Shown piece by piece: positions 5,829-43,347 of a DNA stretch of 64,000 nucleotides. A program made the position numbers and the translations under genes. The stretch lies in contig OZ252098.1 in assembly GCA_965248355.1 (NCBI GenBank), positions 2,336,001-2,400,000 on the forward strand, read 5' to 3'. The stretch is from Candidatus Latescibacterota bacterium (GTDB taxonomy: Bacteria; Latescibacterota; UBA2968; UBA8231). The notes under the pieces were generated by a model. That model had not been told where the DNA came from, ran no database searches, and saw nothing but the letters and a program-made list of their open reading frames with translations. Each line of letters starts with the position of its first letter. Within the stretch, counting starts at the first letter, position 1.

Positions 5829-5885
5829 CCGCCATGTAGACGGCTCCCGCCTGGAACCACCTTCAACCAGGTGCGCCGAACAAGC

Positions 5886-17638: not shown

Positions 17639-17644
17639 TGAGCC

Positions 17645-18514
17645 CTACTCTCCCCGCCACGCCAGGTCGATGCTCGTGTACCCGTCGACGTAGCGCTGCA
17701 GGTGCGCGGGCAGATCGGCGAGGAAGCGCTGACCTCTCTCCGGTATCTCCCAGGGCACCTCGATGCGGTGGTTCCGGTCGCGGAAGCCGATGGCGCACGA
17801 CAGCCGGGGTGCATCGAGGTTGTTGGGGAAGGCGCCGTGATAGGTGCGGTGGGCGAAGACGATCATGTCCCCGGGATCGGTGAAGAGGGGGATGAGCCCG
17901 GGGATGTCGAAGCCGTCGTACGGCGCTTCCTCTTCCCCTTCGGGGTGGAAGGAGCGGCGGTCGCTGGTCAGGGCGAACCCTTCCGGCCCCTCCCAGGCCT
18001 CGACGTGGGAATCCTCGATGACGCACAGCCCGCCGTGGACCGGCCTTGAGCCGGTGATGTAGAACCACTTGCCCGAGGGCCACAGCCCGCGGTTGAGGAC
18101 CTCGCCGGCGTTCTTCGGCGGTCCTTCGCCGAACCCGTGCCAGTCGGTGTGCCAGCGGACCGGAGCCGACCCCTGCATGCGGATGATGGCGGCCGAGCGG
18201 TGGACGGTCATCTCGTCCGTTCCGATCAGGTGGCGGTGGACCTCCACAAAGGGCTCGTGCTCCAGCAGCGACCACGCCCCCAGCCCCGACTCGATCCAGG
18301 CGTGGCGCGTCCTCGACTCCCCGGGCCCCAGGGTGCGGTCCGGGTCCGTGCCCTCCCACACGGCCTTCCGCAGGCCGGCGACCATGTCGTCGGGCAGGAC
18401 GCCCTTGATGATGGCGAAGCCGTGCGCCTCCAGGCAGTCCGACATCGCGTCGAGCTCCTTTCTGGCAAACTCGTACCTGTACCCGGGATCCGGTTTCTCG
18501 ATGGTTTCGATCAT
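17645..18514 (-). CDS. PhyH-family Fe(II)/2OG dioxygenase
   Basis: HGFAIIKGVL, WHTD, GGLCVIEDSH, GDMIVFAHRTYHGA, R motif; RBS GGGAGG. Confidence 0.85.
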   Translation of the reverse strand: MIETIEKPDPGYRYEFARKELDAMSDCLEAHGFAIIKGVLPDDMVAGLRKAVWEGTDPDRTLGPGESRTRHAWIESGLGAWSLLEHEPFVEVHRHLIGTDEMTVHRSAAIIRMQGSAPVRWHTDWHGFGEGPPKNAGEVLNRGLWPSGKWFYITGSRPVHGGLCVIEDSHVEAWEGPEGFALTSDRRSFHPEGEEEAPYDGFDIPGLIPLFTDPGDMIVFAHRTYHGAFPNNLDAPRLSCAIGFRDRNHRIEVPWEIPERGQRFLADLPAHLQRYVDGYTSIDLAWRGE

Positions 18515-18546
18515 CCTTGCCTCCCAGCCGACCGCTACGAGCGGTC

Positions 18547-18609
18547 CCTGGTCCAGAAGGTCGGCCGCTTTCGCGGGCAGGTCCAACGGCTCGCAGGAGG
18601 GTGGCCGCC
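18547..18609. repeat. Diverged copy of the 3' end of the Eis-like gene (21247-21310)
   Basis: Direct alignment: 4 substitutions and 1 indel in about 64 bp, 2700 bp apart. Confidence 0.9.
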
Positions 18610-18690
18610 TTGACCGATCCTGTGTTGGTGCGCCGCTATCTCGAGGGCGTCGGTCTGCCGTCGCGTGCGCCGCCTGTCTCTCCAGCCCGC
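18601..18690 (+). mobile_element. IS91/ISCR-like transposase C-terminal remnant
   Basis: Reads VAALTDPVLVRRYLEGVGLPSRAPPVSPAR, resembling the IS91-family C-terminus (I.DP.VI..IL.HLGLP.RAPP..PAR); recognised from memory. Confidence 0.6.
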
Positions 18691-18741
18691 CTCGAGCGGC
18701 CGTCGGCCACCAGACGTCCTCGCCAGACCAGGTACTGGCCG

Positions 18742-18801
18742 TGCGCAGGATATTTTTGCGCATATAATTGATACTGGCGCATATACGGGCTATACTGCGC
18801 A
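18742..18801. promoter_or_regulatory. Repeated (T/G)GCGCA boxes upstream of fic
   Basis: Four GCGCA boxes at 18743, 18758, 18777 and 18797 in AT-rich context that includes TATAAT. Confidence 0.5.
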
Positions 18802-18831
18802 CATTCTTCTTCGGACGAAATCGAGGACACG

Positions 18832-20235
18832 ATGGCAAGGCGCATCAGGGAAGAGGACTTGCAGGCGATCGAGGAAGTCGTGCAGCCGTACCCTGAGGGG
18901 CGGACCGCACGGCAGATCAGCGATGCCCTGGCTTCGGCGCCGGCCCGCCGGACCTTGCAGTACCGCCTCAAGTCCCTCGTCGACGGCGGTCGCCTGATCA
19001 TGGAGGGTAAGGGCCGCTGGGCGCGCTACCGCGCTCCCCGGCGGATCTCCGTGGCGGCCCAACCGGTCGCCTTCAGCTTCGCTACAGGCGTTGCGCAGGT
19101 GGAGGTCATACCCCCGCTGTCCGAGCCCGCCGCGGAGATCCGTAAACATGTCCGACAGCCGCTGGCGGCACGTCAGCCGGTAGGCTATGACCGGGTGTTC
19201 CTGGATTCGTACCGGCCCGGAGAAACCTTCTATCTATCGCAGGCGGAACGAGAACACCTTCGAGAAGTGGGGACGCCGAAGATCCCCGGGCAGCCCGCAG
19301 GCACCTACGCCAGGGGGATCCTGGACAGACTGCTGATCGATCTGTCATGGAACTCGAGCCGGCTGGAGGGAAACACCTATTCCCTGCTCGACACAACGCG
19401 TCTGCTCGAGATAGGGGAAGAAGTGGAAGGCAAGAAGCGACTCGAAGCGCTGATGATCCTCAACCACAAGGACGCCATCGAGTTCCTGGTCGATGGGGCA
19501 GAGGACATCGGCTTCAATCGCTACACCCTCCTCAACCTTCACGCGCTGTTGGCGGACAACCTGCTGGCCGACCCGGAGGCGACGGGGCGTCTCCGGCACA
19601 TCGGCGTGGGTATCGCGGGCTCGGTCTTTCATCCGCTGGAGATGCCGCCACTCATCCAGGAGTGCTTCGACCAGGTTCTTGCGGCGGCCTCGGCGATCCT
19701 CGACCCCTTTGAGCAAGCATTCTTCGTAATGGTGCAGCTTCCCTACTTGCAGCCCTTCGATGATGTCAACAAGCGGGTGTCACGACTCGCTGCCAACATT
19801 CCACTGATCAAGGGGAATCTGTCGCCGCTGTCCTTCGAGGACGTCTCGCGCGGCCTGTATACCGAAGCCATACTCGGAGTGTACGAGCTGAAACGGATCG
19901 AACTGCTGCGCGACGTGTTCCTCTGGGCGTATGGACGCTCGGCCGCCCGTTACGCCGCCGTCAGGCAGTCCCTTGGCGAGCCCGATCCATTCCGGATGGG
20001 GCACCGCACGGAGCTACGCGAGATCGTTGGCGACGTCGTTCGCGGGGGGATGGACAAGAAGCAGGCCGCGGCCCACATAAGCTCCTGGACACAGGAGCAC
20101 ATCGATGCGCGGGATGGGGAACGGTTTCGCGAGATTGCCGAGCGCGAACTTCTGAGCCTGCACGAGAGAAACTCCGCGCGCTATCGGGTCACCCCGTCCG
20201 AATTCGAGGCGTGGCAGAAGGTCTGGAACAGGTGA
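18832..20235 (+). CDS. Fic-domain protein with N-terminal wHTH
   Basis: RRTLQYRLKSLV wHTH, SWNSSRLEGNTYS, variant Fic motif YLQPFDDVNKRVSR. Confidence 0.9.
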   Translation: MARRIREEDLQAIEEVVQPYPEGRTARQISDALASAPARRTLQYRLKSLVDGGRLIMEGKGRWARYRAPRRISVAAQPVAFSFATGVAQVEVIPPLSEPAAEIRKHVRQPLAARQPVGYDRVFLDSYRPGETFYLSQAEREHLREVGTPKIPGQPAGTYARGILDRLLIDLSWNSSRLEGNTYSLLDTTRLLEIGEEVEGKKRLEALMILNHKDAIEFLVDGAEDIGFNRYTLLNLHALLADNLLADPEATGRLRHIGVGIAGSVFHPLEMPPLIQECFDQVLAAASAILDPFEQAFFVMVQLPYLQPFDDVNKRVSRLAANIPLIKGNLSPLSFEDVSRGLYTEAILGVYELKRIELLRDVFLWAYGRSAARYAAVRQSLGEPDPFRMGHRTELREIVGDVVRGGMDKKQAAAHISSWTQEHIDARDGERFREIAERELLSLHERNSARYRVTPSEFEAWQKVWNR

Positions 20236-20281
20236 GTGACAACGCGCACGACAAATATAGCCCCTTCTTGAAGGCCTGCAG

Positions 20282-20307
20282 CGGCTTCTCGATGGCCCCG
20301 GTCATCC
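20282..20307 (-). repeat. Remnant copy of the PhyH start (18491-18516)
   Basis: 21/26 identical, all five differences are transitions; encodes MTGAIEKP vs MIETIEKP; lies just after the PHP stop. Confidence 0.6.
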
Positions 20308-20321
20308 GCGATCCCCGGCTG

Positions 20322-21206
20322 CTACCACCCGTTCGCATCCCGCAGCCGCTCCCACTGTTCCCATTCCAGGCCCGCCTCGCCGAGCCGGATCTTCTTGTTC
20401 CCGCCGTGGTAGTCGCTGCCGCCCGTGGCGAACAGACCCAGGCGTTCCGCGAGCCCGGCGAAACGGGGAACGAGCTCATCTGCTGAACCGCCCCGGGCCT
20501 CGGAGCCATAGGGATAGAAGACCTCCAGACCGTCGAGGCCGGCCTCCGCCATCCGGCGCACGGCATCCTCGAGATTGCACACCCCCTTGTAGACGCCCGG
20601 GTGGGCCAGCACCGCCTTTCCGCCCGCTTTGTGGATCAGCTTGATGGCTGCCTTCACCGTCAGGCTGAAACGGCGTTGCACGTAGGTAGGGGTCCTCGCA
20701 TCGGAAGCCAGGTACTCGTCGAAGACGTCTTGTTTCCTGGTGAACTTGTCGCGATTGTGCTTGACAGCGATCTCAGCGATGTGCCCACGACCCGGAACCC
20801 CGTAGCCGGCCAGATCCAGCACGTCCTGCTCCGGCACGTGCAGTCCGTAGTCGTGGAGGCGCCTCACCTGGCGGATCTTCTGCTCGATCCGGCTCTCGAT
20901 CACCTCCTCCAACTTCGCCTGCAGGGTCGGATCGTCGGGGTCGATGCCGTATCCCAGGATGTTGATGTCCACGAAGTCCCGCTTCTCCTCCCTGGCCGTG
21001 CTCAGTTCGATGGCCGGGAGTACGTGCACACCTGCCTTCTCACCGGCGGCCCGGGCCTCGCCAACACCCCGGACGTTGTCGTGATCCGTCACGGCCAGCA
21101 CGCGGATGCCGGCTGCAGCCGCTTTGGAGACCAGCTCTTCCGGGGTGTCCGTGCCGTCGGAGAAGGTCGTGTGGGTCTGCAGGTCCACGGGACAGGTGCG
21201 ACTCAT
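20322..21206 (-). CDS. PHP-domain phosphoesterase (TrpH/YciV-like)
   Basis: DLQTHTTFSDG, AVTDHD, GRGHIA, VLAHP, GLEV, TGGSDYHG; ATGA overlap with upstream gene. Confidence 0.9.
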   Translation of the reverse strand: MSRTCPVDLQTHTTFSDGTDTPEELVSKAAAAGIRVLAVTDHDNVRGVGEARAAGEKAGVHVLPAIELSTAREEKRDFVDINILGYGIDPDDPTLQAKLEEVIESRIEQKIRQVRRLHDYGLHVPEQDVLDLAGYGVPGRGHIAEIAVKHNRDKFTRKQDVFDEYLASDARTPTYVQRRFSLTVKAAIKLIHKAGGKAVLAHPGVYKGVCNLEDAVRRMAEAGLDGLEVFYPYGSEARGGSADELVPRFAGLAERLGLFATGGSDYHGGNKKIRLGEAGLEWEQWERLRDANGW

Positions 21207-22378
21207 GAGCGATCCAGCTCCCAGATGGGGAAGTAGAAGGGGAACACCTGGTCCAGAAGCTCGGCCGCTCCCGCGGGCAGGTCCAACCGCTCGCAGGAGG
21301 AGTGGCCGCCGAAGACCAGCTGCACCATCTGCCGCTCCGTCAGCGTCACCCTCTCCCCCGCCGGAGCCGCGTCGAAGCGGACCTCGCCGCCGCGGAACTC
21401 CACCGTCACCAGCTCCCCTGTGTCCGTGGACTCCAGGGACACCGCCCCGGAGAGGCCGGCGGACCTGGAGCGCAGGTGGCCCTCGATGCTCCTGAGCAGC
21501 AGGTCCAGATCGTTGATGCGGATCATCTGCGATCCGACGCCGGAAGCCCGCTCCACCTCCTGCCGCGTCGATCCCACGCGGCCGGCAAGCAGGTCGTCCA
21601 GCACGGTGGGCTTCAGCTTGGTCACCGCCTGCACCGGCGCACAGGTGCTCACCGCCTCGGCCACCAGGGCTTCCACCGCCGCGGGGCTTCCCCCCGCCTC
21701 GTTCAGACCCGGCTTGTTCCTTCCCGACCCCACGCACAGGTAGCCGGCCACCTCGCCTCCGGCCAGGGCCAACCGCGTGTCGATCTTGGGGAGCGTCAGC
21801 AGGGTGGCGTACTCCTCGCGGCTGCGGGCGACGCGCCAGGGTTCGGCGTCGTGGAAGCGGATGACGGCGTCGAGGTACTCGTCCCTCTCCAGATCGAAGG
21901 GGACGATCTCGAAGTCCCCCCGCTTGAAGAGCGCCGCGTCACCGGGCGACAGGGCGTAGACCCACCCTTGGTTGCCGACCGCCTCCCAGCCGGAGTGGTG
22001 GTAGAAGGGAAAGGTGGCCTGCAGGGTCCACAGGACCGACACGGGCCAGCCCTCCTCCTTCATGATGCGCACGCAGTCGCGCAGGCAGCGGGTGGCGTAG
22101 CCCTTGCGGCGATGGTCGGGATGGGTGACGGTGGGGCTGATGAGGCCGGCGGTGAAGGAGTCCTCGCCGGCGATGATCTTCCGCGGCGCCACCGGAACGT
22201 GGGCCACCACCTTACCCGCGACCTTGAGGATGCGCATGCAGCGGAGCCCGCGGTCGTTGAAGATCAGGGGGTAGTCGGTGAGGATGTCCTGATCCGAGTC
22301 GGGTCGGAAGGTGGCGTTGATCAGGGCGAGGGTTTCGTCGAACTCCTCGGGCCTGCAGGCGCGGGGTCCTTCGATCAT
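21203..22378 (-). CDS. Eis-like GNAT acetyltransferase with SCP2-like C-terminus
   Basis: VTHPDHRRKGYAT, SVLW..FPFYHHSGWE, QMIRINDL, C-terminal SCP2-like region. Confidence 0.8.
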   Translation of the reverse strand: MIEGPRACRPEEFDETLALINATFRPDSDQDILTDYPLIFNDRGLRCMRILKVAGKVVAHVPVAPRKIIAGEDSFTAGLISPTVTHPDHRRKGYATRCLRDCVRIMKEEGWPVSVLWTLQATFPFYHHSGWEAVGNQGWVYALSPGDAALFKRGDFEIVPFDLERDEYLDAVIRFHDAEPWRVARSREEYATLLTLPKIDTRLALAGGEVAGYLCVGSGRNKPGLNEAGGSPAAVEALVAEAVSTCAPVQAVTKLKPTVLDDLLAGRVGSTRQEVERASGVGSQMIRINDLDLLLRSIEGHLRSRSAGLSGAVSLESTDTGELVTVEFRGGEVRFDAAPAGERVTLTERQMVQLVFGGHSSCERLDLPAGAAELLDQVFPFYFPIWELDRS

Positions 22379-22513
22379 CCGCAGTCGTTTACAGCCCGGC
22401 CTCTTCCGGCTTGCTCTAGCATGCCCAGCCCGATGCAAGACCCTTCGACCTATTTGGATTCTTCCGGACCTGACCGCAGGTGGGCCCAACGCCCACCGTG
22501 GCGCAGACTTGAT

Positions 22514-24175
22514 CTACTCGTCATCTGAAGCGTCGCTATCAGCAATGGTTGCCGCGGTCCTTTCCGTCGGCAGTGATACGTTCCGTTCACTCATGAAATC
22601 GCGCTCTCCGGAGATTAGGGCTCCTAGCCGGGATCCAATCAGACCCACCCGATCGCCGCCAGTCAACGCCTCCATTGATTCCTTTGGAAAGCCATGTGAC
22701 TGAAGCACCACCGCCATTTGATCTTCTCCCAACGCCGCCAGATCATCGACTGCCTGCCCAACTTGATCCGCGTTGAGGAACATGCGGTTTGCAGGGGTAC
22801 TAAAGAGCTCCTGAAGTAGGCCTGCGTTTGACGATACGTAGCCCACGGCTCTGCTTCCACGACTGGAGAGCAGTCGACCTAGATCAAGTATTTCTCCATG
22901 GAAGCTGCGCGGCTGGAGCGACCCAAGATAGAGGAGGAATGCGCGCACACGAGCACTCCGCCCATCGAATCGCTCCGGAAATGCCTGAGCAGGCGTATCG
23001 AAGTCCACCACGTCCAAGCTCGCCCTGCGTCCCTGGGCTAGCTCCCGGATATCACTTAGCGCGTGCCTAACTTGAGCGGTGTTGACGCCTCCAAACCAAC
23101 CCGTGAATGAAGTCACCCAGAACCACCGCTCCAGCAACTCTACCACTCGAGCCTCAGGCCGTGGACACAATCGAAAGAACTCGCCGAGCAACACCAGTTG
23201 GAGCCCATATGGCAGCAATCGGTCTGACGTAACCCCTAGCTCCTTCAGAAAGGTGAGTGCAGCCCTTATTCCCTCAGCCGCCAAGTCGAATACTTCTGGA
23301 AGCCTGTCTCGCACTTCCTGTTGTACCATGAGCTTCGCCCAGTCCTTTGCGTATATGTCCCGGTCGAGAGCCGCGAGTACCGCCCTCAGGAGCAGGACTC
23401 GATCAAGATTTCCAAAGCCCACCCCGTCTAGTTCCTCCTTGAATTCGTCCAGCTTCTTGGCAAGATGAAACTCCCCTTCCCGGTAGGTGAGGGCGGACAC
23501 CATCTCGTCCGCCGCCATCTTTCTACCGGTACGATTAAGCCGGGCAAAAACGGTTACCGCGCTGTCGAGGTCTGCCTCCCGGAGATGGATGACCGGCAGT
23601 TGATAGTCTCGGAACGCGTTTGCCAAGCGATCCGCCTCTGCGATCCATCGGCTTCCCAACTCCTTGTCCGGTGCATCCGATTCGATGTGACGGCAGGCCC
23701 CAAAGAAACCAGCCGTATCAAGTAGGCAGTGCATTGGGAAATGCTGTGGCTCTAGTCCGCCAGCGGGTGCCCTCAGGAATTCTCCTCTGTCCAAGTCACA
23801 ATATATACCCCAGTCGACTTGATCTACGATTGATGGCACTCCATCAGGCAACTGCAGTGTTCCAACAAGAGTCGACACCCGTTGTTGACCATCGAGCAGA
23901 TAGCCAATCATCCCATCTGGCCGCGGACCCACTTCAACTGGACCAATGTGCTGCGCGGTCTCCACTTCTTCCTCTGTATCCCAGACAAGGATCGAGCCAA
24001 TCGGGAAACCTCGTAGAACGCTGTCGAGCAGCGCATGCAGGTCTTCCTGTTTCCAAACAAAGGGACGTTGGAACTTTGGCACGCGGACTTTTCCAGCTGT
24101 TATGCGTTCCACGAGTTTGCCCAGGAATACAACTTCTGGCACGACTTCTGTACGGCCTCGGCTGCTGTCAGACAT
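22514..24175 (-). CDS. DUF262 (ParB-like/GmrS) domain protein
   Basis: VPKFQRPFVW, LLDSVLRGFPIGSILVW, LLDGQQR, VFARLNRTG; lower-GC block. Confidence 0.9.
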   Translation of the reverse strand: MSDSSRGRTEVVPEVVFLGKLVERITAGKVRVPKFQRPFVWKQEDLHALLDSVLRGFPIGSILVWDTEEEVETAQHIGPVEVGPRPDGMIGYLLDGQQRVSTLVGTLQLPDGVPSIVDQVDWGIYCDLDRGEFLRAPAGGLEPQHFPMHCLLDTAGFFGACRHIESDAPDKELGSRWIAEADRLANAFRDYQLPVIHLREADLDSAVTVFARLNRTGRKMAADEMVSALTYREGEFHLAKKLDEFKEELDGVGFGNLDRVLLLRAVLAALDRDIYAKDWAKLMVQQEVRDRLPEVFDLAAEGIRAALTFLKELGVTSDRLLPYGLQLVLLGEFFRLCPRPEARVVELLERWFWVTSFTGWFGGVNTAQVRHALSDIRELAQGRRASLDVVDFDTPAQAFPERFDGRSARVRAFLLYLGSLQPRSFHGEILDLGRLLSSRGSRAVGYVSSNAGLLQELFSTPANRMFLNADQVGQAVDDLAALGEDQMAVVLQSHGFPKESMEALTGGDRVGLIGSRLGALISGERDFMSERNVSLPTERTAATIADSDASDDE

Positions 24176-25135: not shown

Positions 25136-25139
25136 GGCC

Positions 25140-26369: not shown

Positions 26370-26507
26370 TGCCGACTATCCTGGCAAGGTGTTAGCCTGA
26401 CTGATAGGGATCGGAAAGGATCGCAGGTTATCCCTGTCCACGCAAGGGGCGGGAAAGCAGCATGGGAGATCCCCGTTTGCAGGCGCTTCAGCACTAGCTC
26501 GGGGCCT

Positions 26508-28067
26508 TCACCCGCCCGCGTGGGCCCAGCCCGGCAGCACCCCGGCTTCGATCCCGAACAGGTGCGGGCCCATGAAGCTGAAGATCAGGGTGATGACGAC
26601 GGCCCCCACAAGATTGAGGACGAGGCCGACCCGCGCCATCTCCGAGATCTTCACGCGGTCGCTGCCGAAGACCACGGCGTTGGGGGGCGTGGCCACGGGC
26701 ATCATGAAGGCGCACGAGGCGGACAGAGTGGCGGGGATCATCAGCAGCAGCGGGTGCAGGCCCGTGGAGACGGCGACGGCGGCGAAGATGGGCAGCACCA
26801 TCTCGGTGGTGGCCGTGTTCGAGGTGAGCTCGGTGAGGAAGGTGATGGAGAGGCAGATGACGAGGATGAGGACGATGGGCGGCACTGAGCCGAGGCCGCT
26901 GAAGCCGCCGCCGATGAAGCGGGCCAGTCCCGTGACCTGAAAGCCGTGGGCGAGGGCGAAGCCGCCTCCGAAGAGGAGCACGATGTTCCAGGGCAGGCCG
27001 CGGACCACGTCGGGACCCATCACCGTCCGGGACCGGGCGCCGGGAGAGCGGGCCGGCACGAGGAAGAGGATCCCGGCCATGGCGATGGCCACGGTGCCGT
27101 CGTCGATCAGGTGGCCGTAGGGCAGCAGGGCAGACCAGCCTGGGATGGTGAGGCCCCCGATCTCGATGGGGGCGCGGAAGACCCAGAGCACGGCGGTGGC
27201 GGCGAAGACCGCGAGGATCACCCGCTCTTCAAAGGAGACGGCGCCGAGCGTGCGCGCCTCCGACTCCAGGACCTCGCGGTCGACGGCGACCTCCCCCGGG
27301 ATGCGGAAGAAGACCTGCGTGATCAGCACCCAGGCGCAGGCGAGCATCAGCGCCGAGATCGGCGCCGCCATGACGAACCACACGCCGAAGGTGATGGGCG
27401 GCGCCTCCGGGAAGGTGATCTGGAAGATCCGCTCCAGCGAGAGGTTCGGCGGCGTGCCCACCAGTGTGGCGATGCCCCCCGCCGAGCAGGCGTAGGCGAT
27501 GCCGAGCATGACGGCCACGGAGAAGGCACGGGTCCGCTCCCGCCCGAACTGCTCCTCCATCCGCAGGATCACGGCGAGTCCCACCGGGAGCATCATGATC
27601 GCCGTGGCCGTGTTGGAAATCCACATGGAGAGGAAGGCGGCGGCGAGCATGAAGCCGAGCACGATCCGCGCCGGCCCTCCCCCCACCGAGCGGATGACCC
27701 ACAGGGCGATGCGCCGGTGGACGTCCCACTTCTCCATGGTCAGGGCGATCATGAAGCCGCCCAGGAAGAGGACGATGGTGCTGTTGAAGTAGATCGGCGC
27801 CGTGGCGCGGGTCTGCTCGATGCCGAGCAGCGGATAGAGGATCAGCGGCAGCAGGGCCGTGGCGTAGAGCGGAATCGCGTCGGTGATCCACCAGGTGGCC
27901 ATGAGCAGGGCCGCGGCGGCCATGCGCGTGACCTCCGGCCGGCCCGGCTCGAGGTCGAGCAGCAGGGTGAGGGCGAACAGCAGCGGCCCGAGCCACAGGC
28001 CGATGCGCTGGCCGCGGGACCGGGGCTCGGCGGAGGTCGGCGTGGCAGGATCTTGGGCGCTGGTCAT
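26508..28067 (-). CDS. SLC13/DASS family anion:sodium symporter
   Basis: SMWISNTAT, GTPPN, TELTSNTAT, AFMMPVATPPNA. Confidence 0.93.
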   Translation of the reverse strand: MTSAQDPATPTSAEPRSRGQRIGLWLGPLLFALTLLLDLEPGRPEVTRMAAAALLMATWWITDAIPLYATALLPLILYPLLGIEQTRATAPIYFNSTIVLFLGGFMIALTMEKWDVHRRIALWVIRSVGGGPARIVLGFMLAAAFLSMWISNTATAIMMLPVGLAVILRMEEQFGRERTRAFSVAVMLGIAYACSAGGIATLVGTPPNLSLERIFQITFPEAPPITFGVWFVMAAPISALMLACAWVLITQVFFRIPGEVAVDREVLESEARTLGAVSFEERVILAVFAATAVLWVFRAPIEIGGLTIPGWSALLPYGHLIDDGTVAIAMAGILFLVPARSPGARSRTVMGPDVVRGLPWNIVLLFGGGFALAHGFQVTGLARFIGGGFSGLGSVPPIVLILVICLSITFLTELTSNTATTEMVLPIFAAVAVSTGLHPLLLMIPATLSASCAFMMPVATPPNAVVFGSDRVKISEMARVGLVLNLVGAVVITLIFSFMGPHLFGIEAGVLPGWAHAGG

Positions 28068-28102
28068 GGGGTTGGTCGAGCGGTGCGCGGGCGGCTGGCC
28101 CG

Positions 28103-28903: not shown

Positions 28904-29016
28904 AGCTGTGAAAATAGGGCCTGCTCCGACTTGTACCACCATCTCCCTGGGGACCCGCGCCTCGGCAGGATTTCGCGGCTTGTCCACCGTCGCCTGCCTC
29001 CGTAGAGTCCCTCGCC

Positions 29017-29946
29017 ATGACCTACTACGTGGCCGCCTACGACACCGAAGCCATCTATCCCTGGTGGGAGCTCGGCGATGGCTCACCCCGGGCCGCAACG
29101 ACCTATCAGGATGCGGTGAGCTACTCAGGGACTCGCCTCGACGAGTGTCTCGATGGCGTGCGCGCCGTGGCCGAGGTCCACCTGCGGCACCGTGCGCCGG
29201 CCAGCTTCTTCATCGTCGGCCGGCTCGCCGAGGCCGCGGGGTCCCGGCTGCGGGAGATCCTCGATCACGACCTCTTCGATCTGCAGTCCCACAGCTTCAC
29301 CCACGAGAACATGCTCGCCATCCGCGACGATCCGGCGGCGGTGCGCCGCGAGCTGGTCGACTCCCGGCGCGTCATCGAGGATCTCTTCGGTCGCGAGGTG
29401 ATCGGCTTCACGGCGCCGGGGGGGTTCGCCCGCGGCTTCCTTGGCGAACCGCGGCTCCTGGAGGCGCTGTGGCAGGCCGGCTACCGCTACGTCCGCACCC
29501 TGAGCTGGCAGCCGGGCAACCTCTCGCCGGCGCCGCTGACGCAGCCCTTCTGGTTCAGCGACGACGGCTTCCCGGAGCTGCTGGAGATCTCCGCCCACGC
29601 CTGGCACGACAACATCCTCACCGGCCAGCCCTCGGCGGCGGCCTGGCCTCCGGCCCTGCCGTGGGGCTACCCGGCGAGCGTGCCCGCCACCGCCCGCGAG
29701 GTCTACGAGGCCTACGCTCCCGGCATCGAGCACGCCCGCGACGAAGGGCTGCTCACCTACGCCCCCTGCTTCCATCCCTGGTCCATCCACCGGGTGGACC
29801 GGGCCGCCGGGCAGATCGACCTGCTGCTGGACCACGCCCGCCGCGCCGGCCTGACCCTGGGCTCTTGCGTCGACGTGTACCGGCGCCTGGCCGCGGAACC
29901 GCAGATGGCCCATCCGGCCCCGAGGTTCGCCGCCGCCTCGGCCTAG
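29017..29946 (+). CDS. Polysaccharide deacetylase family protein
   Basis: AYDTE, ASFFIVG, SHSFTH, GFTAPGG, FHPW. Confidence 0.82.
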   Translation: MTYYVAAYDTEAIYPWWELGDGSPRAATTYQDAVSYSGTRLDECLDGVRAVAEVHLRHRAPASFFIVGRLAEAAGSRLREILDHDLFDLQSHSFTHENMLAIRDDPAAVRRELVDSRRVIEDLFGREVIGFTAPGGFARGFLGEPRLLEALWQAGYRYVRTLSWQPGNLSPAPLTQPFWFSDDGFPELLEISAHAWHDNILTGQPSAAAWPPALPWGYPASVPATAREVYEAYAPGIEHARDEGLLTYAPCFHPWSIHRVDRAAGQIDLLLDHARRAGLTLGSCVDVYRRLAAEPQMAHPAPRFAAASA

Positions 29947-30016
29947 CACCTCGATCCACCCCGTCAGTAATACTCATCTGCTTGACTGCGCTTCTTTTTC
30001 TGGACATTTTTCCATC

Positions 30017-30220
30017 ATGAAGACTACAGTCGATATTCCCGACGGCGAGCTTCAGGATGCGATCCGATTCACGAACGCGAAGACCAAGCGCGAGGCCATC
30101 GTCGGCGCGGTCGTGGATTTCAACCGCCGCATGCGCATGGCGGAGCTGACCCGGTACGCCGGCACCTGCCCGGATCTGATCACGCCGCAAGAGCTTCAGA
30201 CCGCCCGGCGGCAGGGCTGA
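30017..30220 (+). CDS. vapB: VapB antitoxin (DUF2191-like), copy 1
   Basis: MKTTVDIPD..L..AIRFT.AKTKREAI. Confidence 0.88.
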   Translation: MKTTVDIPDGELQDAIRFTNAKTKREAIVGAVVDFNRRMRMAELTRYAGTCPDLITPQELQTARRQG

Positions 30221-30224
30221 GGCG

Positions 30225-30596
30225 TTGGTCCTCGTCGATACTTCGTCCTGGGTACACATGCTTCGTCCGGGCGGAGACCCAGCCGTGCGGGCCCGGGTGG
30301 AAGCGGCGCTGACGGCGGGGCAGGCCTGTTGGTGCGCCTTGGTGCAACTCGAGCTTTGGAACGGCGCCTCCGGGCAGCGGGAACAGAGGGTTCTGCGGGA
30401 GTTCGCCCGGGCCCTCCCGGAGCTTCCCATCGACGCGGAAGTGTGGCAAGCGGCTTACGACTTGGCCCGGCGGGCACGAGCCCAGGGCGTCACCGTGCCG
30501 GCCACCGACGTGATCATCGCCGCCTGCGCCCGGCGTCACGGCGCCGCTCTCGAAGCCGCGGATACGGACTTCGAGCTCCTGGCATCGGTGGGCTGA
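30225..30596 (+). CDS. vapC: VapC PIN toxin, copy 1
   Basis: LVDTSSW, LELWNG, ATDVIIAA, ADTDF; TTG start. Confidence 0.88.
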   Translation: MVLVDTSSWVHMLRPGGDPAVRARVEAALTAGQACWCALVQLELWNGASGQREQRVLREFARALPELPIDAEVWQAAYDLARRARAQGVTVPATDVIIAACARRHGAALEAADTDFELLASVG

Positions 30597-30637
30597 TTCG
30601 GCGAGCGAAGTACCCGGCCCACTCGCGCCGGTCCCCC

Positions 30638-32940
30638 TCAAAACTCCAGTTCGAAGCCTCCCACCGGGATCCGGCTCCACTGGTAGACGCGGCCCGTCCG
30701 GTTGTCGTCGCTGTCCCAGAAATGGTGATAGAGGTTGGCGCGGTCGTAGGCGTTGAGAACGGTGAAGAACGAGACCAGGTTGAAGCGCTCGAAGTGCCGC
30801 CGGTGGTCGAAGCGCAGATCGAGACGGTGATAGGGCGGCAGGCGCAGAGCGTTGATCCGGTGGCGCTGCACGATGCCGGTCCCCTGGCGCGCCGACTCGG
30901 TCTCGTCGAAGGGGGTGTAGGGCCGTCCTCCCGCAAAGCGCCAGCGCAGGCTGTACTCCCGGGTCTCGCCGTGGCGGTAGCCGAGGATGAGCGATGCCAG
31001 GTGCCGGTTGTCGAAGGAGCGGTTGCGCTCCCGACCCGTGAGATCGGTGTAGCGGGAACGGCCATAGGCGTAGCTCACGGTGCCGTAGAGCTTGCGGACG
31101 AGCTTCTTCTGGATCATCGCCTCAGCGCCCCGGGACTCCGCCCGACCCCCGCCCACCAGCCGGCCGGGCGCCGGCGTGCCGAAGTCGGCAAAGGCGTCGA
31201 CCACCGAGACCGTGGGGTCGTCGGGGTCGAAGGGCAGGTTGCGGTAGCGCTTTAGGTAGCCCTCCAGGGTGAACAGGGTGTTCTCCGTCAGGCGCCGGCG
31301 CAGCCCGAGGACGTAGTGGGCGGCGCGGGGACTGTCCAGCCGGCGGTTGTCGGGGTGCTGAACCAGCAGGGAGGCGGGCAGGTTCTGATGGTAGAGCCCC
31401 CAGGCGGCGCTCAGCGAAGTGAGGGGATCGATCTGCCATCGCAGGGACAGCCGCGGCGACAGGTCCCTCTCCCCGGTGTAGTCGAAGTACTCCCAGCGCA
31501 GTCCCGCCCCGGCGGTAACGCCCCGGGCAGGGGCCGGTCATGGGCGAGAAACGCCGCCAGCTTGGTCGAGGCCACCCCCTCGCCCACGTGCAGCTCCCCG
31601 GTCACCTCGTTGACGCGATTCGTGCGCGACGCCGAGAACAGCGAGAAATCGCTGAACTCCCGGCGCCCCGTGATCCCGCCGCGCCACTCGCCGCCGGCCG
31701 CCGGTGACCAGGTGACGTCGCTGCGCAGCAGGACCGCGCGCTCCTGCGAGGAGTTGAGGAACAACTCGCCGCGCGTCCGGCCGTCGAGGACATCGATCCC
31801 GAAGTCGGCGAAGGAGAAGGTCAGGGAGGTGCGGGCGAAGCCGCGGCGGCTCCACAGCCATCGCCAGCCGGCGCCGGCGACGAGCTGATCGGTCTCGCTG
31901 ACCACGAAGTCCTCGTCGGCGTCGGTGTCGCCGGGAACGAAGTCGATGGCGCTGAAGCCGGCGATCCCCAGCAGCGAGAGGCGGTGCCGGGAGGACGGGT
32001 CCCAGCTCAGCTTTCCCTGCAGGTCGCTGTAGCGGGGCACGGCCCCGGTGCCGATGGCGTCGACGATGAGGTCGAGATAGCTGCGCCGCCCCGAGGCGAT
32101 CCACGATCCGCGCCCGGCCGGGAGAGGGCCTTCGAGCAGCAGTCCCGCCCCCGCCATGCCGAGCTGCACCTCGCCGTCGATCTCCTCGCGGTTGCCCTCG
32201 CGCAGGTCGACGAGCATCACCGACGACAGGCGGTCGCCGTAGGCGGCGGAGAAGCCGCCGGCGTAGAACGCGGCGTCCTCGATGAGATCCGTGTTCAGCA
32301 GGCCGATCGGGCCGCCCGAGGCCCCCTGGGTCGGGAAGTGATTGATGTTGGGGATCTCGATGTGGTCGACGAGGACCAGGTTCTCCGTGGGGCTGCCGCC
32401 GCGGACGATGAGGTCGTTGCGCTCGTCGGTGTTCATGTTCACCGAGGGCATGGCCTGCAGGAGGCGGCTGATGTCCCCCGCCGATCCCGGGGAGCGCCGC
32501 ACCTCCTCGTAGCTGAAGCTCACCCCGCCCACCGCCTCTCCCGCGGCGTCGGAGAAGTAGTCGGCCACGACCACCGTCTCCTCGCCCAGATCCATCACCT
32601 CCGCGTCGAGATCCAGCTCGAGATCGGTGACCCGGCGCGGACGCACGACCACGTCGGTACGCACGATGTCGGCGTACCCGATCATGGAGATCCGCAGGCG
32701 ATGCACGCCCGCCGGGATGCCGGGCAGGGCGAAGCGTCCCCGCCCGTCGGCCATCGCTCCCCGCTCGGTCCCGAGAACGCGCACGCCGGCCCCGGGCAGA
32801 GGCTGTTGGGTGGCCCGGTCGAGGATCTCCCCCCGGATCTCGCCGAGCCCCTGGCCGTGGGCGGGCAGGGCGAGCAGGACGGCGGCGGCCAGAGCCGCCA
32901 CGGCAGCGGCGAGGGGCCGCCTGGATGGCAGTCGACAGCC
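30638..32940 (-). pseudogene. TonB-dependent receptor with carboxypeptidase-regulatory-like N-domain; frameshift ~31520, start unclear
   Basis: Signal-like AAAVLLALPAHG, NDLIVRGGSPTEN, GGFSAAYGDRLSS, LPPYHRLDLR, terminal ELEF; frame shifts at a G4 run; no clear ATG. Confidence 0.82.
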
Positions 32941-32994
32941 TTGGATAATATGATTCTCCTTGATCAAGATGCCTTCATATAGGAGATTAGCATC

Positions 32995-33198
32995 ATGAAA
33001 ACCACTGTCGATATTCCCGACAACGAGCTCGAGGACGCCATCCGATTCACCAAGGCGAAGACCAAGCGCGAGGCCATCGTCGGCGCCGTGGCCGACTTCA
33101 ACCGCCGCATGCGCATGGCCGAGCTCACCCGGCACGCCGGCACCTGCTCGGGTCTGATTACCCCGGAGGAGCTGCAGACCGAGAGGCGGCGGGGCTGA
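32995..33198 (+). CDS. vapB: VapB antitoxin, copy 2
   Basis: 57/67 aa identical to copy 1 (manual count). Confidence 0.88.
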   Translation: MKTTVDIPDNELEDAIRFTKAKTKREAIVGAVADFNRRMRMAELTRHAGTCSGLITPEELQTERRRG

Positions 33199-33202
33199 GC
33201 CG

Positions 33203-33574
33203 TTGATCCTCGTCGATACGTCGTCCTGGGTCCACATGCTGCGTACGGGCGGAGACCCCGAGGTTCGGGCCCGGGTCGAAGCCGCCCTGACCGCGGGGCA
33301 AGCCTGCTGGTGTCCGCTGGTGCAGCTCGAGCTGTGGAATGGCGCGTCGGGGGCCAAGGAGCAGAGGGTCTTGAGGGAATTCGCCCGCGTCCTGCCGCTG
33401 CTTCCCATCGACGCGGAGGTCTGGCATCGGGCCTGTGACCTGGCGCGGAGGGCGCGCGCCAAGGGCGTCACGGTTCCGGCCACCGACGTGGTCATCGCCG
33501 CCTGCGCCCGACGCCACGGCGTCGCTCTCGAAACCGCGGATACGGACTTCGAGCTTCTTGCATCGGTGGACTGA
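33203..33574 (+). CDS. vapC: VapC PIN toxin, copy 2
   Basis: 107/123 aa identical to copy 1 (manual count). Confidence 0.88.
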   Translation: MILVDTSSWVHMLRTGGDPEVRARVEAALTAGQACWCPLVQLELWNGASGAKEQRVLREFARVLPLLPIDAEVWHRACDLARRARAKGVTVPATDVVIAACARRHGVALETADTDFELLASVD

Positions 33575-33702
33575 CTGCCCAAGGACTACGCCCGCCCAGC
33601 CCTCGACCTGCGGCCAGGAGTCCTCCGACTGGGGCGGCGAGCGGCTGCCGGTCGAAGACAACCTGACGCCGCTGGGATTCGGAGATACTGGTGGGGCAGC
33701 GG

Positions 33703-33739
33703 TTGACAGCAATCCTGGCTAGAGTAACAATCTAGCCAG
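33703..33739 (+). promoter_or_regulatory. Sigma70-like promoter with overlapping TA operator
   Basis: TTGACA-N17-AACAAT; perfect inverted repeat CTGGCTAGA-N7-TCTAGCCAG (33715-33739) straddles the -10. Confidence 0.72.
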
Positions 33740-33763
33740 ATCACCTGGACAGGACGAACGCTC

Positions 33764-34018
33764 ATGACCGAGTGGCCATTGCAAGACGCCAAGAATCGCT
33801 TCAGCGCGGTGGTGGAGGCGGCGTTGGGCGGCGAGCCTCAACGCGTGACCCGACGCGGCAGGCCCGCTGTCGTCGTTCTGGCCGTAGAGGAGTACGACCG
33901 CCTGCGGCGTCTGGAGCGCGCAGAGGCCCCCTCCCTCGCGGATCTGATGCTCGCCATGCCGCAGGACGACGGGGAGTTCGAGCGGCTGCCGTTGCCGCTG
34001 CGGCCGCTGGACGTCTGA
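33764..34018 (+). CDS. Phd/YefM family antitoxin
   Basis: WPLQDAKNRFSAVVEAA..PQRVTRRGRPAVVV. Confidence 0.92.
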   Translation: MTEWPLQDAKNRFSAVVEAALGGEPQRVTRRGRPAVVVLAVEEYDRLRRLERAEAPSLADLMLAMPQDDGEFERLPLPLRPLDV

Positions 34019-34437
34019 TGTACCTCATCGACACCGACGTGCTATCGGCGCTGCGCAGACGGGTCCGCGCCCCCAACCTGCTGGCGTGGATATCGGCCCA
34101 GCGCACGGCGGACCTCTACTTGAGCGTTGTGTCCGTCGGCGAGGTGGAAAGAGGCATTGCCCGGCAGGAGCGCCGAGACCCCACGTTTGCGCGCGCCCTC
34201 GCCCTCTGGCTGGACAGCGTGCTGGCGCTCTACGGCGACCACATCCTTCCCGTCGATGTAGCGTCCGCGCGGCGCTGGGGTCGTCTGTCCAACGTGCTCG
34301 GCCATGACGGCGCCGACCTGCTCATCGCCGCCACTGCGCTGGAGCACGGCCTGACCGTGGTGACCCGCAACGTCAGGCACTTCGAGCCGGCCGGCGTCAA
34401 GGTGCTCGATCCCTTCGGCCGCCGGGAGACGCCGTAG
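34018..34437 (+). CDS. vapC: VapC PIN toxin
   Basis: TGATG coupling; MYLIDTDVLS, SVGEVERG, DLLIAATALEHGLTVVTRN. Confidence 0.92.
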   Translation: MYLIDTDVLSALRRRVRAPNLLAWISAQRTADLYLSVVSVGEVERGIARQERRDPTFARALALWLDSVLALYGDHILPVDVASARRWGRLSNVLGHDGADLLIAATALEHGLTVVTRNVRHFEPAGVKVLDPFGRRETP

Positions 34438-34487
34438 CCCCGCTCGGTTGCAGCAAGGAAATCGCACTACTGGCCAGCAACAGGCAG

Positions 34488-34652
34488 GCGGACCGGCTGG
34501 ACTTGCCGCGCCGCTACCGGGACCAGCTTGAGGCGCTGCTGCGCGAGCACGTGCCCGGCGTCGAGGTGTGGGCCTACGGAAGCAGGGCAAACGGCGAGAG
34601 CCACGAGGGCAGGGACCTCGACCTGGTGCTGCGCGGTCCCGCCCTGGAACCG
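34488..34652 (+). pseudogene. Minimal nucleotidyltransferase (MNT) fragment
   Basis: ADRLDLPRRYRDQLEALLREHVPGVEVWAYGSRANGESHEGRDLDLVLRGP; no good start, C-terminal half missing. Confidence 0.75.
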
Positions 34653-34961
34653 TGTTTGTCCTTGATGCGTGGATCCCGAAGAGACTCTGCACGACCGTAG
34701 CGCAGGCCGATGAAGTACCCCGGCCAGACGAAGACCCCGTCCTCCCGTTCCTATTGATCAGGCGGGGATGGCCCTCACGGTGGTGCCCCGCCTGGCACTA
34801 CCGCGCAGCCCGGTCTGCTCCGGCGCCAGGCGCGGAAGTCGCCGGCCTTCACCTCCATGAACTCACCTTCGGCCAGGACCCGTTCCGCCAGGTGCCAGTC
34901 CGCGCCCGGGACTATGGACCAACCCGGAGTCCGGGCTTTCTCCTGGCCGGGGCCGGCGCCG

Positions 34962-36200: not shown

Positions 36201-36236
36201 GCCGGGAAACCAAGGCCGCACGACGGTTTGGCGCAA

Positions 36237-43341: not shown

Positions 43342-43347
43342 GGTGGC

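Follow-up and report, generated by a model that had tools for sequence, protein, structure and literature searches.

The footprint left by insertion with long target duplication was reportedly first described, for restriction genes, by Nobusato et al. in 2000. Homology-facilitated illegitimate recombination is a process for which de Vries and Wackernagel, in 2002, and Prudhomme et al., in the same year, are said to be the sources. In Campbell-type insertion-duplication, a circle with a chromosomal fragment leaves its cargo between two copies of that fragment; where that fragment crosses a gene border, both neighbouring genes stay whole, and the circle must already contain the target stretch. 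Integrative elements typically have repeats of 45-135 nt that overlap the 3′ ends of genes.

Among the cases in the passages cited here, Furuta, Abe and Kobayashi (2010) described restriction-modification units inserted with long target duplication, with repeats of 45 to about 420 bp, and also listed the integrative-element class (PMC2853133). The cited part of another work recognises such insertion for "other DNAs" as well (PMC3457768), and the displacement arrays found at Rhs, CDI and T6SS loci have been explained, in the part cited, by a homology-facilitated illegitimate recombination model (PMC5361080).

Here we analysed a window of 64,000 nucleotides, the whole stretch of DNA under study, in the genome of an uncultivated high-GC bacterium (G000), and compared it with congeners including G002, G006 and G007, with the relatives G004 and G019, and with G011 and G046 of other genera (Table 1). 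We found that modules were added beside intact neighbour genes and that the landing site was copied over tens to hundreds of bases, which partly confirms an initial annotation that had placed decayed copies of neighbouring gene ends around inserted modules. Because the phenomenon is in print, as far as the cited passages go (PMC2853133), the present loci further exemplify insertion with long target duplication and are no novel element type. We give a probability of about 0.7 to the whole explanation, in which an old SLC13-Eis-PHP-PhyH gene row, together with the adjoining deacetylase-vapBC-caspase region, would form a hypervariable locus, and modules (fic, the TonB receptor and others in relatives) would enter by insertion with long target duplication.

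Table 1. Features of the locus, in window coordinates
Position	Strand	Feature	Basis
17563..17685	.	Border where SGL/gluconolactonase-like gene (+) and PhyH (-) meet at their 3′ ends; one copy in G000	
17645..18514	-	PhyH-family dioxygenase gene, intact	Pfam PF05721
18547..18609	-	Orphan Eis/GNAT gene 3′-end copy, ~30 nt upstream of PhyH start	Sequence comparison
18610..18831	+	fic upstream region, AT-richer; repeated short box directly before fic start (by eye)	
18832..20235	+	Fic/DOC-domain gene, inserted cargo	Pfam PF02661
20282..20307	-	Orphan PhyH-start copy, 16 nt past PHP stop; ribosome site spacing retained	
20322..21206	-	PHP-domain gene; start overlaps Eis stop (ATGA)	Pfam PF02811
21203..22378	-	Eis-like GNAT acetyltransferase gene; functional repeat copy at 21247-21310	Pfam PF13527
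22379..26507	-	Three-gene low-GC island: GmrSD_N/DUF262, unknown gene, AAA_15/AAA_21 ATPase	
26508..28067	-	SLC13/Na-sulfate symporter gene, upstream end approximate	Pfam PF00939; 518-520-aa ORFs in relatives
30013..30596	+	vapBC copy 1, intact, outlier copy	
30603..30625	.	Short stretch past vapC1 resembling caspase-gene 3′ end; weak alone	
30638..32925	-	TonB-dependent receptor gene (TonB1), cargo	Pfam
32991..33574	+	vapBC copy 2, intact, orthologous to relatives' single vapB	
33764..34437	+	Phd/YefM antitoxin and PIN toxin pair	Pfam
34691..34906	-	Two caspase-domain gene leftovers: 34691-34752, 34785-34906	Comparison with relatives

Repeats and empty sites in the window

We compared pairs of segments under three scorings with 1000 shuffles and 1000 genomic control pairs. 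Of five scars claimed by the initial annotation, the Eis 3′-end copy and the vapBC pair lie far above chance and the PhyH start is weak with backing from a relative, while the flanks of the DUF262 island and a "TonB end" fell away. Empty sites for all three modules that it had named were found in congeners or metagenome contigs.

For fic, said to lie between PhyH-start and Eis-end remnants, the Eis end stands: the orphan matches the functional copy over 64 nt at 92.2% (E 4e-18), a score reached in 0/1000 shuffles under all three scorings and in 0, 2 and 0 of 1000 genomic pairs. Furthermore, the orphan end has one breakpoint common to G000, G007 and G002, adjoining the fic upstream region, which is collinear with G007 and G002. 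The PhyH-start copy matches 18491-18516 at 81% of 26 nt (21/26); the score of the exact segments was reached in 0/1000 shuffles, and the unbiased flanks (131 x 86 nt) were equalled by 1, 10 and 10 shuffles and by 8, 134 and 67 genomic pairs, each out of 1000. Past the PHP stop, G006 has the same PhyH-like start and then two further PhyH pieces (36 nt, 86%, E 8e-5; 63 nt, 90%, E 2e-18), and this longer remnant independently backs what is, taken alone, a weak candidate scar. Repeats of the kind left by long target duplication are present around fic only in part, as a 24-nt PhyH start and an insert-borne 64-nt Eis end.

By DNA search, 3 of the 10 genomes of the genus, G000 among them, carry fic, as does one genome of another genus. 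It is absent from G006, and its empty site, a PHP-PhyH junction where 8 other letters separate 18519 from 20319, occurs in X16 and X17 contigs. G011, from another genus, carries fic at 93% identity and, about 1.8 kb from it, a mosaic made up of the 3′ end of Eis and the 5′ end of PHP (88%), whereas its native Eis homologue, located elsewhere, is 66% identical. This is one direct case for the proposal that flanks enter with the module.

As the initial annotation had it, the TonB receptor gene lies between two vapBC copies, which match over 584 nt at 83.9%. vapB1 is 82-85% identical to every other copy, and vapB2 is 93.6% identical to the vapB of G006. The receptor is missing from G006 and G002, which have one vapB each, and G007 has the receptor without vapBC1. 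Because the repeat ends coincide exactly with the start and stop of the operon, the pair could also be an independent toxin-antitoxin paralogue instead of a target duplication. The proposed erosion of the redundant copy is seen as a decay series across loci but not here, where both copies are intact and under purifying selection, with differences mostly at third codon positions. Compared with G007 and G019, the receptor gene lacks 1 nt near 31523, and the region from about 33178 to 34690 is missing from G007 at the corresponding site. The stretch past vapC1, which resembles a caspase-gene 3′ end, is the similarity behind the "TonB end" of the initial annotation.

The DUF262 island is genuine, given its GC contrast (0.54-0.60 against 0.63-0.74 in the flanks) and its empty sites. 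It sits exactly between the SLC13 stop codon and the Eis start codon; these genes are joined with 0-25 nt between them in G002, G006 and G007, and contigs of X16, X17 and X1 show the empty joint, with 22378 running directly into 26508. The supposed SLC13-end remnants around it, 22386-22448 and 26474-26551, are no more similar than genomic controls: their score was reached in 14, 7 and 60 of 1000 shuffles and 46, 42 and 155 of 1000 genomic pairs, the unbiased flanks gave counts of 42, 44 and 29 (shuffles) and 221, 460 and 306 (genomic pairs), each of 1000, and a separate control gave 50/1000 dinucleotide shuffles and 371/2000 genomic pairs. The flank pair is not supported as a scar, and the island, the largest here, entered with no duplication detectable in these comparisons.

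The stretch 34706-34750, read earlier as a TonB-receptor end, was rejected as such: the match of the TonB1 end with 34690-34860 was reached in 110, 102 and 429 of 1000 shuffles, and the region is the 3′ end of a caspase-domain gene intact in three congeners. There, 34691-34752 corresponds to the 3′ end of a 753-904-aa ORF in G002, G006 and G007, with a Peptidase_C14 match in G002 and G007 and no Pfam match in G006. Judged from this comparison, the "TonB end" reads as ordinary gene decay.

The footprint in relatives and elsewhere in the genome

The abutting gene ends at the left of the locus are duplicated on both sides of an amidase insert in G006 (121 nt, 86%; duplicated target about 135 nt) and G002 (61 nt, 88.5%), with G000, which has the stretch once, as the empty site; G007 has a decayed right-hand repeat copy only. 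The two G006 copies have derived letters in common. In G002, an oxidoreductase and kinase pair (GFO+APH; 68 nt at 91%) and an AbiEii module (54 nt at 83%) also lie between duplicated gene ends, so that these stretches span 54-135 nt in the congeners. Elsewhere in G000, at locus L023, repeats of 44-45 nt that begin at a GC-rich palindrome enclose a Type ISP restriction gene, and the target stretch is single-copy in 4/4 congeners. In G046, a homologous DUF262 operon lies between 293-nt repeats at 85%; identity to orthologues is 87-88% for the orphan repeat and 90-91% for the functional one. A DUF6785 module is 94-98% identical among species and its flanks 87-91%. At the L024 repeat, G002, G004 and G006 carry the cargo without one repeat copy.

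The identical layout is found for at least seven different cargos, with inserts of 1.8-4.1 kb, under the 20-kb limit for such insertions. An empty site to which both flanks align was found for fic, the DUF262 island, TonB1, Type ISP and amidase, and, for Type ISP, amidase and vapBC/TonB1, a pair of direct repeats (over 30 bp) that match one empty-site copy, with none at the DUF262 island of the window. These repeats and empty sites support the proposal that a landing-site stretch crossing a gene boundary is duplicated when a module is added, and extend it beyond the cases first cited. The footprint is not confined to defence or toxin-antitoxin cargo, since it also surrounds an amidase, the oxidoreductase and kinase pair, the TonB receptor and a DUF6785 gene. 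Only the Type ISP gene is restriction-modification cargo, none of fic, TonB1, amidase, GFO+APH and AbiEii being a restriction gene, and the GmrSD-type operon of G046 could be counted as Type IV-like.

Genome-wide, local repeat clusters numbered 79 direct and 7 inverted after filtering, or 11 and 3 under a strict isolation filter, an excess inflated by tandem paralogues and intragenic repeats. Of 12 loci hand-picked from the direct list, five have transposases or multi-copy elements (L025, L026, L028, L030, L033), L027 is without synteny, and L029, L031 and L032 were left out of follow-up.

Compared with the cases in the cited passages of Furuta et al. (PMC2853133), the present loci likewise have a cargo of a few kb that brings no mobility gene, direct repeats exceeding 30 bp that line up with a single empty-site copy, and variable repeats often spanning a start or stop codon; the Type ISP repeat, which overlaps the last 30 nt of a gene, closely resembles their Haemophilus 46-bp cases. 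Unlike those cases, most cargo here is non-restriction (Fic, TonB receptor, amidase, oxidoreductase and kinase, AbiEii), which weakens the suggestion made there that restriction cutting is the driver. Also unlike them, several events are nested in one 20-kb stretch, old enough for a decay series, and one module took flank fragments into another genus.

Mobility genes, rival explanations and route of entry

The strongest rival is that no duplication accompanies insertion: scars would be decayed tandem operon duplications, independent toxin-antitoxin paralogues or deletion fragments, and modules would come by double crossover in their flanks. The "TonB end" is itself a deletion fragment of just this kind, the vapBC repeat follows operon borders with both copies under purifying selection, the DUF262 island has no duplication, and G007 (vapBC1) and G002, G004 and G006 (L024) have cargo without one repeat copy. 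We nevertheless regard it as rather improbable, as in the clean cases a copy adjoins the insert on either side and the two align with one empty-site copy (Type ISP in 4/4 congeners, amidase against G000), the layout recurs across the cargos, and three orphan Eis ends share one breakpoint beside the fic upstream region.

Site-specific integration, with an attachment site that mimics a gene end, repeats as attL/attR and an integrase lost or acting from elsewhere, fits the 45-135-nt repeats over gene 3′ ends and the palindrome at the Type ISP repeat. Like integrase-borne islands at gene 3′ ends, these loci have direct repeats of tens of bases at the borders and an intact target gene, in the islands because the element supplies a substitute end. 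In keeping with the initial annotation, no integrase was found in the window (57 ORFs, Pfam scan), and no transposase or tRNA target either; nor was there an integrase or transposase among scanned ORFs of relatives' inserts or at L023; the 5.5-Mb genome has only three PF00589 genes, the nearest 98 kb off. Neither an integron (no PF00589 gene within that distance and no Rfam family match) nor an IS or transposon (no transposase, and repeats varying from 44 to 584 nt) is supported; the inverted repeats listed are scattered 26-41-nt pairs at 70-81% match. Target and repeat length change with each event, up to 584 nt, and a gene start is sometimes spanned rather than an end. We therefore consider site-specific integration clearly improbable.

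Repair of a staggered double-strand break, with nicks tens to hundreds of bases apart, overhangs filled and foreign DNA ligated by Ku/LigD end joining, predicts variable lengths, no need of homology and copies identical at birth. It suits the 44-135-nt cases in a genome that encodes Ku, and is very unlikely overall, being hard to extend to 293-584 nt or about 1.2 kb and leaving the outlier vapBC1 and the fic-borne operon fragments unexplained. An assembly artefact, two strains merged into false diverged duplications at strain-specific islands, is hardly credible despite a one-contig genome with 4.18% estimated contamination and metagenome-like runs holding several related populations, since X12 contigs (X12 may be the source sample) match at 100% over the Eis-end copy, fic, PHP, both DUF262 junctions and vapBC1-TonB1-vapB2, the Eis-end orphan recurs in genomes of two other species, and amidase repeats in three.

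Insertion with long target duplication, our preferred reading, draws on what we observed directly: repeats, empty sites, absence of recombinase genes and a decay series. After the event, the module would stand between two copies of a 45-600-nt stretch (about 1.2 kb, perhaps, in the case of fic), of which the empty site has one. This duplicated sequence would span a stop or start of tightly packed genes, so that both neighbours retain complete ends; the surplus half would then decay, or persist if it is a complete unit such as vapBC. Host recombination would join DNA arriving from relatives, and the repeats may then permit later gene conversion, loss or re-entry.

The most likely route, which we favour tentatively, is one homologous crossover and one illegitimate join, the donor homologous arm reaching past the join (homology-facilitated illegitimate recombination). 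As in Rhs, CDI and T6SS arrays, homology would anchor one side, an old gene end would be displaced downstream as an orphan, a dedicated recombinase would be unneeded and events repeat at one locus; those arrays, in the part cited, displace the variable toxin tips of one family, whereas the orphans here are housekeeping-type gene ends at many borders (PMC5361080). We infer, independently of those papers, that this route could yield a target duplication. The outlier vapBC1 and the operon fragments with fic may hint at a donor-like arm; G046 and the short repeats offer too little resolution. Further donor-type hints are the derived letters common to the G006 repeats and ComEC in the genome, and the divergence of the repeat copies fits both identity and divergence at birth. 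A Campbell-type event, in which a circularised fragment enters by one crossover, is a doubtful alternative: its product has the layout seen here, and no circular form or plasmid origin was seen, the search for circular or excised forms having covered contigs rather than reads. No sign of rolling-circle elements, also proposed initially, was detected.

It is possible, if unlikely, that long duplications act as a recombinase-free mobility device, in which modules loop out by host recombination, carry one copy, or fragments, of their flanks to a relative and re-enter at the same border by single crossover, recreating the duplication. The fic gene with operon fragments in another genus, the derived letters of the G006 amidase repeats and the DUF6785 identity above that of its flanks are hints in this direction. 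If this is true, any gene, defence or metabolic, would be a cassette able to move between congeners and, on occasion, from one genus to another.

Gene map and claimed scars

We built the gene map from Pfam scans of 57 plausible ORFs of the window, which belongs to a 5.5-Mb genome in one contig with ~69% GC. The three-gene DUF262 block has a GC content of 0.54-0.60, against 0.63-0.74 in its surroundings. The Pfam scan detected no integrase or transposase among the 57 ORFs, no tRNA gene or att target was found in the window, and known RNA families (Rfam) gave no match in the window or in L023, a restriction-modification locus of the same genome.

Genes around the inserted modules, in window coordinates
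Feature	Position	Strand	Remark
SGL/gluconolactonase-like	16760-17638	+	
PhyH dioxygenase	17645-18514	-	
Fic/DOC	18832-20235	+	
PHP-domain gene	20322-21206	-	
Eis-like GNAT	21203-22378	-	stop overlaps PHP start
GmrSD_N/DUF262, unknown gene, AAA_15/21 ATPase	22379-26507	-	low-GC block
SLC13 symporter	from 26508	-	
Polysaccharide deacetylase	29017-29946	+	
vapBC copy 1	30017-30596	+	
TonB-dependent receptor (TonB1)	30638-32925	-	
vapBC copy 2	32995-33574	+	
Phd/PIN pair	33764-34437	+	
AAA_14/DUF4143 ATPase	34962-36236	-	

The AAA_14/DUF4143 ATPase has two paralogues in the window (338-1567 and 47448-48731), the first of which shares 64% DNA identity with the copy at 34962-36236 over ~960 nt. At 39280-47472, a 1353-aa Eco57I-type methylase/restriction gene adjoins a 1374-aa gene without Pfam match, with HepT-like and HTH genes nearby, and the region looks like a second defence cluster.

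The initial annotation had proposed that inserted modules are bracketed by decayed copies ("scars") of neighbouring gene ends, and cited five of them. We compared the window with itself by small-word self-BLAST and scored the claimed pairs by local alignment under three scoring schemes, with 1000 shuffles and 1000 same-size genomic segment pairs 1.5-5 kb apart as controls for each pair.

Controls, out of 1000 each, that reached the score of the claimed pair under the three scoring schemes
Pair	Shuffles	Genomic pairs
Eis end	0/0/0	0/2/0
PhyH start, exact 26-nt segments	0/0/0	0/0/0
PhyH start, unbiased flanks	1/10/10	8/134/67
DUF262 pair as claimed	14/7/60	46/42/155
DUF262, unbiased flanks	42/44/29	221/460/306
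TonB1 end vs 34690-34860	110/102/429	264/379/672

Two of the five scars are solid, one is weak alone and two are not above background. The copy of the Eis end flanking fic (18547-18609 vs 21247-21310; 64 nt, 92.2%, E 4e-18) scored far above both types of control, and both it and the vapBC duplication around the TonB receptor (30013-30596 vs 32991-33574; 584 nt, 83.9%) were recovered outright by self-BLAST. The PhyH-start scar exceeded all controls as exact segments and is weak alone when unbiased flanks are compared. The supposed SLC13-end scar around the DUF262 operon (22386-22448 vs 26474-26551), tested three ways, was no better than genomic control pairs; in the further test of its flanks the score was reached by 50 of 1000 dinucleotide shuffles and 371 of 2000 genomic pairs. 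The TonB-end remnant at 34706-34750 turned out to be part of a caspase-domain gene, with similarity to TonB1 at background level.

Empty sites and the same footprint in relatives

We searched 40 relatives at the DNA level and applied finer BLAST to the fetched loci, which gave collinear maps for three congeners (G002, G006 and G007), each ~87-93% identical to the window. Empty sites were found for the DUF262 island, fic and TonB1. The island is absent from all three congeners, in which Eis and SLC13 lie 0-25 nt apart from stop to start; fic is absent from G006 and present in G007 and G002 along with an orphan Eis end; TonB1 is absent from G006 and G002, both of which have one damaged vapB, while G007 has TonB1 without vapBC1.

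Population-level forms were read from contigs, not reads, of public sequencing runs, and uncovered parts were excluded from the evidence. Position 22378 is joined to 26508 in contigs of runs X16, X17 (one sample) and X1, so that the 4129-nt island is skipped, and the two sides have no letters in common where they meet. Contigs of X16 and X17 also join 18519 to 20319 with 8 other letters between, such that the PHP stop stands beside the PhyH start without fic, and 30265 to 33300, leaving a single vapBC without TonB1.

The congeners bear the same footprint with other cargos. The SGL-like and PhyH genes, convergent and almost touching in the source genome, are separated by an amidase gene in G006, G002 and G007, and on either side of the insert an intact gene end is paired with a decaying orphan. 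The duplicated target measures ~135 nt over both gene ends in G006 (121 nt, 86% by BLAST) and 61 nt (88.5%) in G002, and a decayed right-hand copy alone is left in G007. The two G006 repeats (L013, 3265-3382 and 5177-5297) carry the same series of derived letters, which the source genome, G002 and G007 lack, a sign of gene conversion between the two repeats or of re-entry. In G002, a GFO/IDH/MocA and APH pair is bracketed by a 68-nt (91%) duplication of the PhyH 5' end, and an AbiEii module inserted between Eis and PHP by a 54-nt (83%) Eis-end duplication.

In a search of 76 genomes of the order, the three-gene DUF262 operon turned up in one further genome, G046 of another genus, at 73% identity. 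There the operon (L045) lies between two 293-nt direct repeats (85%; 1216-1508 and 5737-6029) that duplicate the 5' portion of a 330-aa gene, the one on the left being a truncated 98-codon stub; DUF262 cargo can thus bear the footprint, though it is absent around the source-genome copy. Compared with the orthologues in the relatives G045 and G047, the orphan copy is 87-88% and the functional copy 90-91% identical, values that fit more than one model; of the flanks of the G046 island these two relatives share just the right one, and no empty site was legible there.

We scanned the source genome for local repeats within 16 kb by chunked self-BLAST. After removal of overlapping tandem hits, 1264 direct and 79 inverted pairs were found; at least 80% identity, 40-700 nt and a distance of at least 400 nt left 191 direct pairs in 79 clusters and 11 inverted pairs in 7 clusters, and a strict isolation filter 11 and 3. 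The raw direct excess consists largely of tandem paralogues and within-gene repeats, which leaves the direction of the bias as its one informative aspect. Twelve loci were hand-picked from the direct list and inspected, with L029, L031 and L032 left out of further analysis. The cleanest is L023 (G000:C1:5430401-5439700), a 4.1-kb low-GC segment with a Type ISP restriction-modification gene flanked by 44-45-nt repeats (93%; 2548-2590 and 6725-6768) made of a GC-rich palindrome and the final 30 nt of a DUF6807 gene. The empty site is present in all four congeners searched, with this stretch once and the two flanking genes abutting. A 640-nt ORF-less stretch beside the Type ISP gene is also found by itself in three genomes from another genus. 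L022 and L024 fit older, shared events. The DUF6785/DUF6784 gene that is the cargo of L024 (G000:C1:4711901-4720300) is 94-98% identical among species against 87-91% for the flanks, which suggests a recent spread between species; the source genome and G007 both have the MerR-side flank repeated over 156-203 nt.

For L027, synteny was not found in relatives. L025, L026, L028, L030 and L033 were rejected as clean cases, their repeats lying beside transposases or multi-copy elements. Within L033 (G000:C1:4678801-4689500), 46-nt direct repeats (89%; 2538-2583 and 8126-8169) enclose an MmeI-type restriction-modification gene and a Mutator-family transposase gene.

The vapBC pair and the fic event

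The redundant copy had been expected to erode. For vapBC this does not apply: both copies are intact (protein identity 85% for VapB and 87% for VapC), and the nucleotide differences fall mostly in third codon positions (19 of 30 in vapB, 39 of 63 in vapC), which indicates that neither copy is eroding. The repeat reaches from ~5 nt ahead of the start of vapB to the vapC stop. As vapB2 matches the G006 vapB (93.6% identity, promoter region in common) and vapB1 is the outlier, at 82-85% identity to every other copy, the extra DNA relative to G006 is vapBC1 plus TonB1. An incoming fragment with its own landing-site copy would account for this, as would an old duplication followed by losses, or a toxin-antitoxin paralogue of independent origin. 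A chimeric vapB, which excision between the copies should leave behind, was not seen in G006, whose gene is vapB2-like over its full length. Compared with G007 and another relative, G019, TonB1 lacks 1 nt near 31523, a deletion that splits its frame; contigs of run X12, which may be the source sample of the window, agree with the window here, and those of X16 and X17 contain the extra base.

The stretch 34691-34752 is the 3' end of a minus-strand ORF of 753-904 aa in G002, G006 and G007 (95-98% identical over the stretch; two of the three ORFs match Peptidase_C14, and that of G006 has no Pfam match), and 34785-34906 matches a piece ~1 kb deeper in the same gene. The source genome has thus lost, by deletion, all but these two short pieces of a ~755-aa caspase-domain (Peptidase_C14) gene that the three congeners keep intact. 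The similarity noticed initially is between the end of this gene and ~20 nt directly after vapC1 (30603-30625), and suggests, at a level not significant alone, that the copied unit extended slightly beyond vapC.

The ancestral row Eis-PHP-PhyH, with a 17-nt PHP-PhyH spacer, is seen in the fic-less run contigs. In the source genome the PHP stop is followed by 16 nt and a 24-nt PhyH-like start, of which G006 retains a longer remnant, and thereafter by fic on the opposite strand, the fic upstream region, the orphan Eis end and the intact PhyH. The orphan Eis ends of the source genome, G007 and G002 share their breakpoint against the fic upstream region and therefore derive from one event. Incoming DNA with fic and a copy of Eis end-(PHP)-PhyH start, followed by deletion of the surplus PHP copy, would yield such an arrangement.

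A DNA search located fic in 3 of the 10 genomes of its own genus (the source genome counted) and, at 93% identity, in one of the two from another genus, G011. About 1.8 kb from it, G011 has a contiguous mosaic of 155 nt of the Eis 3' end, 230 nt of the PHP 5' end and 112 nt of the PhyH 5' end at 85-88%. Since many genera share a PhyH 5' end conserved at 75-89%, only the Eis/PHP part is diagnostic. Since the native Eis homologue of G011, elsewhere in its genome, is only 66% identical, Eis/PHP operon fragments have moved along with fic into another genus, with the caveat that the G011 fic locus is rearranged. The Eis piece extends 48 nt past the breakpoint of the three orphans and so is not a simple copy of them. 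Around the transferred fic, this locus (L019) also has ~300-nt dispersed repeats (10009-10312, 15568-15871, 16614-16915) and a second family of four ~130-nt copies; these two short families may be small non-autonomous elements.

Route of insertion

Collectively, these results show that insertion is additive, with a long target duplication of varying length, that targets span gene borders, that a recombinase gene is absent in and near the inserts, and that surplus copies decay; with the vapBC copies excepted, the initial picture of integrase-free addition with eroding flank copies is partly supported. The surviving duplications span starts and stops because of selection, as only such events keep both neighbours whole.

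The phenomenon is already known. Passages of Furuta, Abe and Kobayashi 2010 (PMC2853133) describe insertion with long target duplication with repeats of 45 to ~420 bp, often over a start or stop, and cite Nobusato et al. 2000 as its first report; a passage of PMC3457768 recognises the mode for restriction systems and 'other DNAs'. As far as these passages of PMC2853133 go, the footprint is the same, whereas here the cargo is mostly non-restriction; we add this range of cargo, a nested decay series and flank fragments moved with fic. DNA breakage by the cargo is suggested there as linked to the duplication. Most of the present cargos are not nucleases, so our data argue for host recombination on incoming related DNA and against cutting by the cargo.

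We infer that host recombination makes the join. Our leading route, to which we give a probability of about 40%, is a linear fragment from a relative, with homology anchoring one side and an illegitimate join on the other. A homologous donor arm reaching past the illegitimate join would give exactly the observed product, with the donor arm then serving as the functional copy and the original end of the recipient left as the orphan. A ComEC gene is present in the genome. Homology-facilitated illegitimate recombination is proposed, in a passage of PMC5361080, for orphan arrays at T6SS, Rhs and CDI loci. Doubtful even when taken jointly are scars unrelated to insertion, assembly error and routes of another kind; as regards assembly error, the X12 contigs are 100% identical to the window over every junction in question, although X12 may be the source sample itself. 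Single crossover of a circularised fragment (the Campbell route) would leave the same product as one-sided homologous entry, and we consider it unlikely. An integrase acting from elsewhere is improbable; the whole genome has only three PF00589 recombinase genes, the closest 98 kb from the window. Repair of a staggered break is very improbable; Ku is encoded in the genome.

How restriction genes and other small cassettes enter without a mobility gene has been a standing question since 2000. Here, a 20-kb stretch, together with three congeners and a single genome from another genus, provides a nested series of events of varied ages, cargos and repeat lengths (44 nt to >500 nt), with true empty sites and one case of flank fragments moving with the cargo, and the stretch shows how tightly packed or overlapping genes accept new neighbours unbroken.
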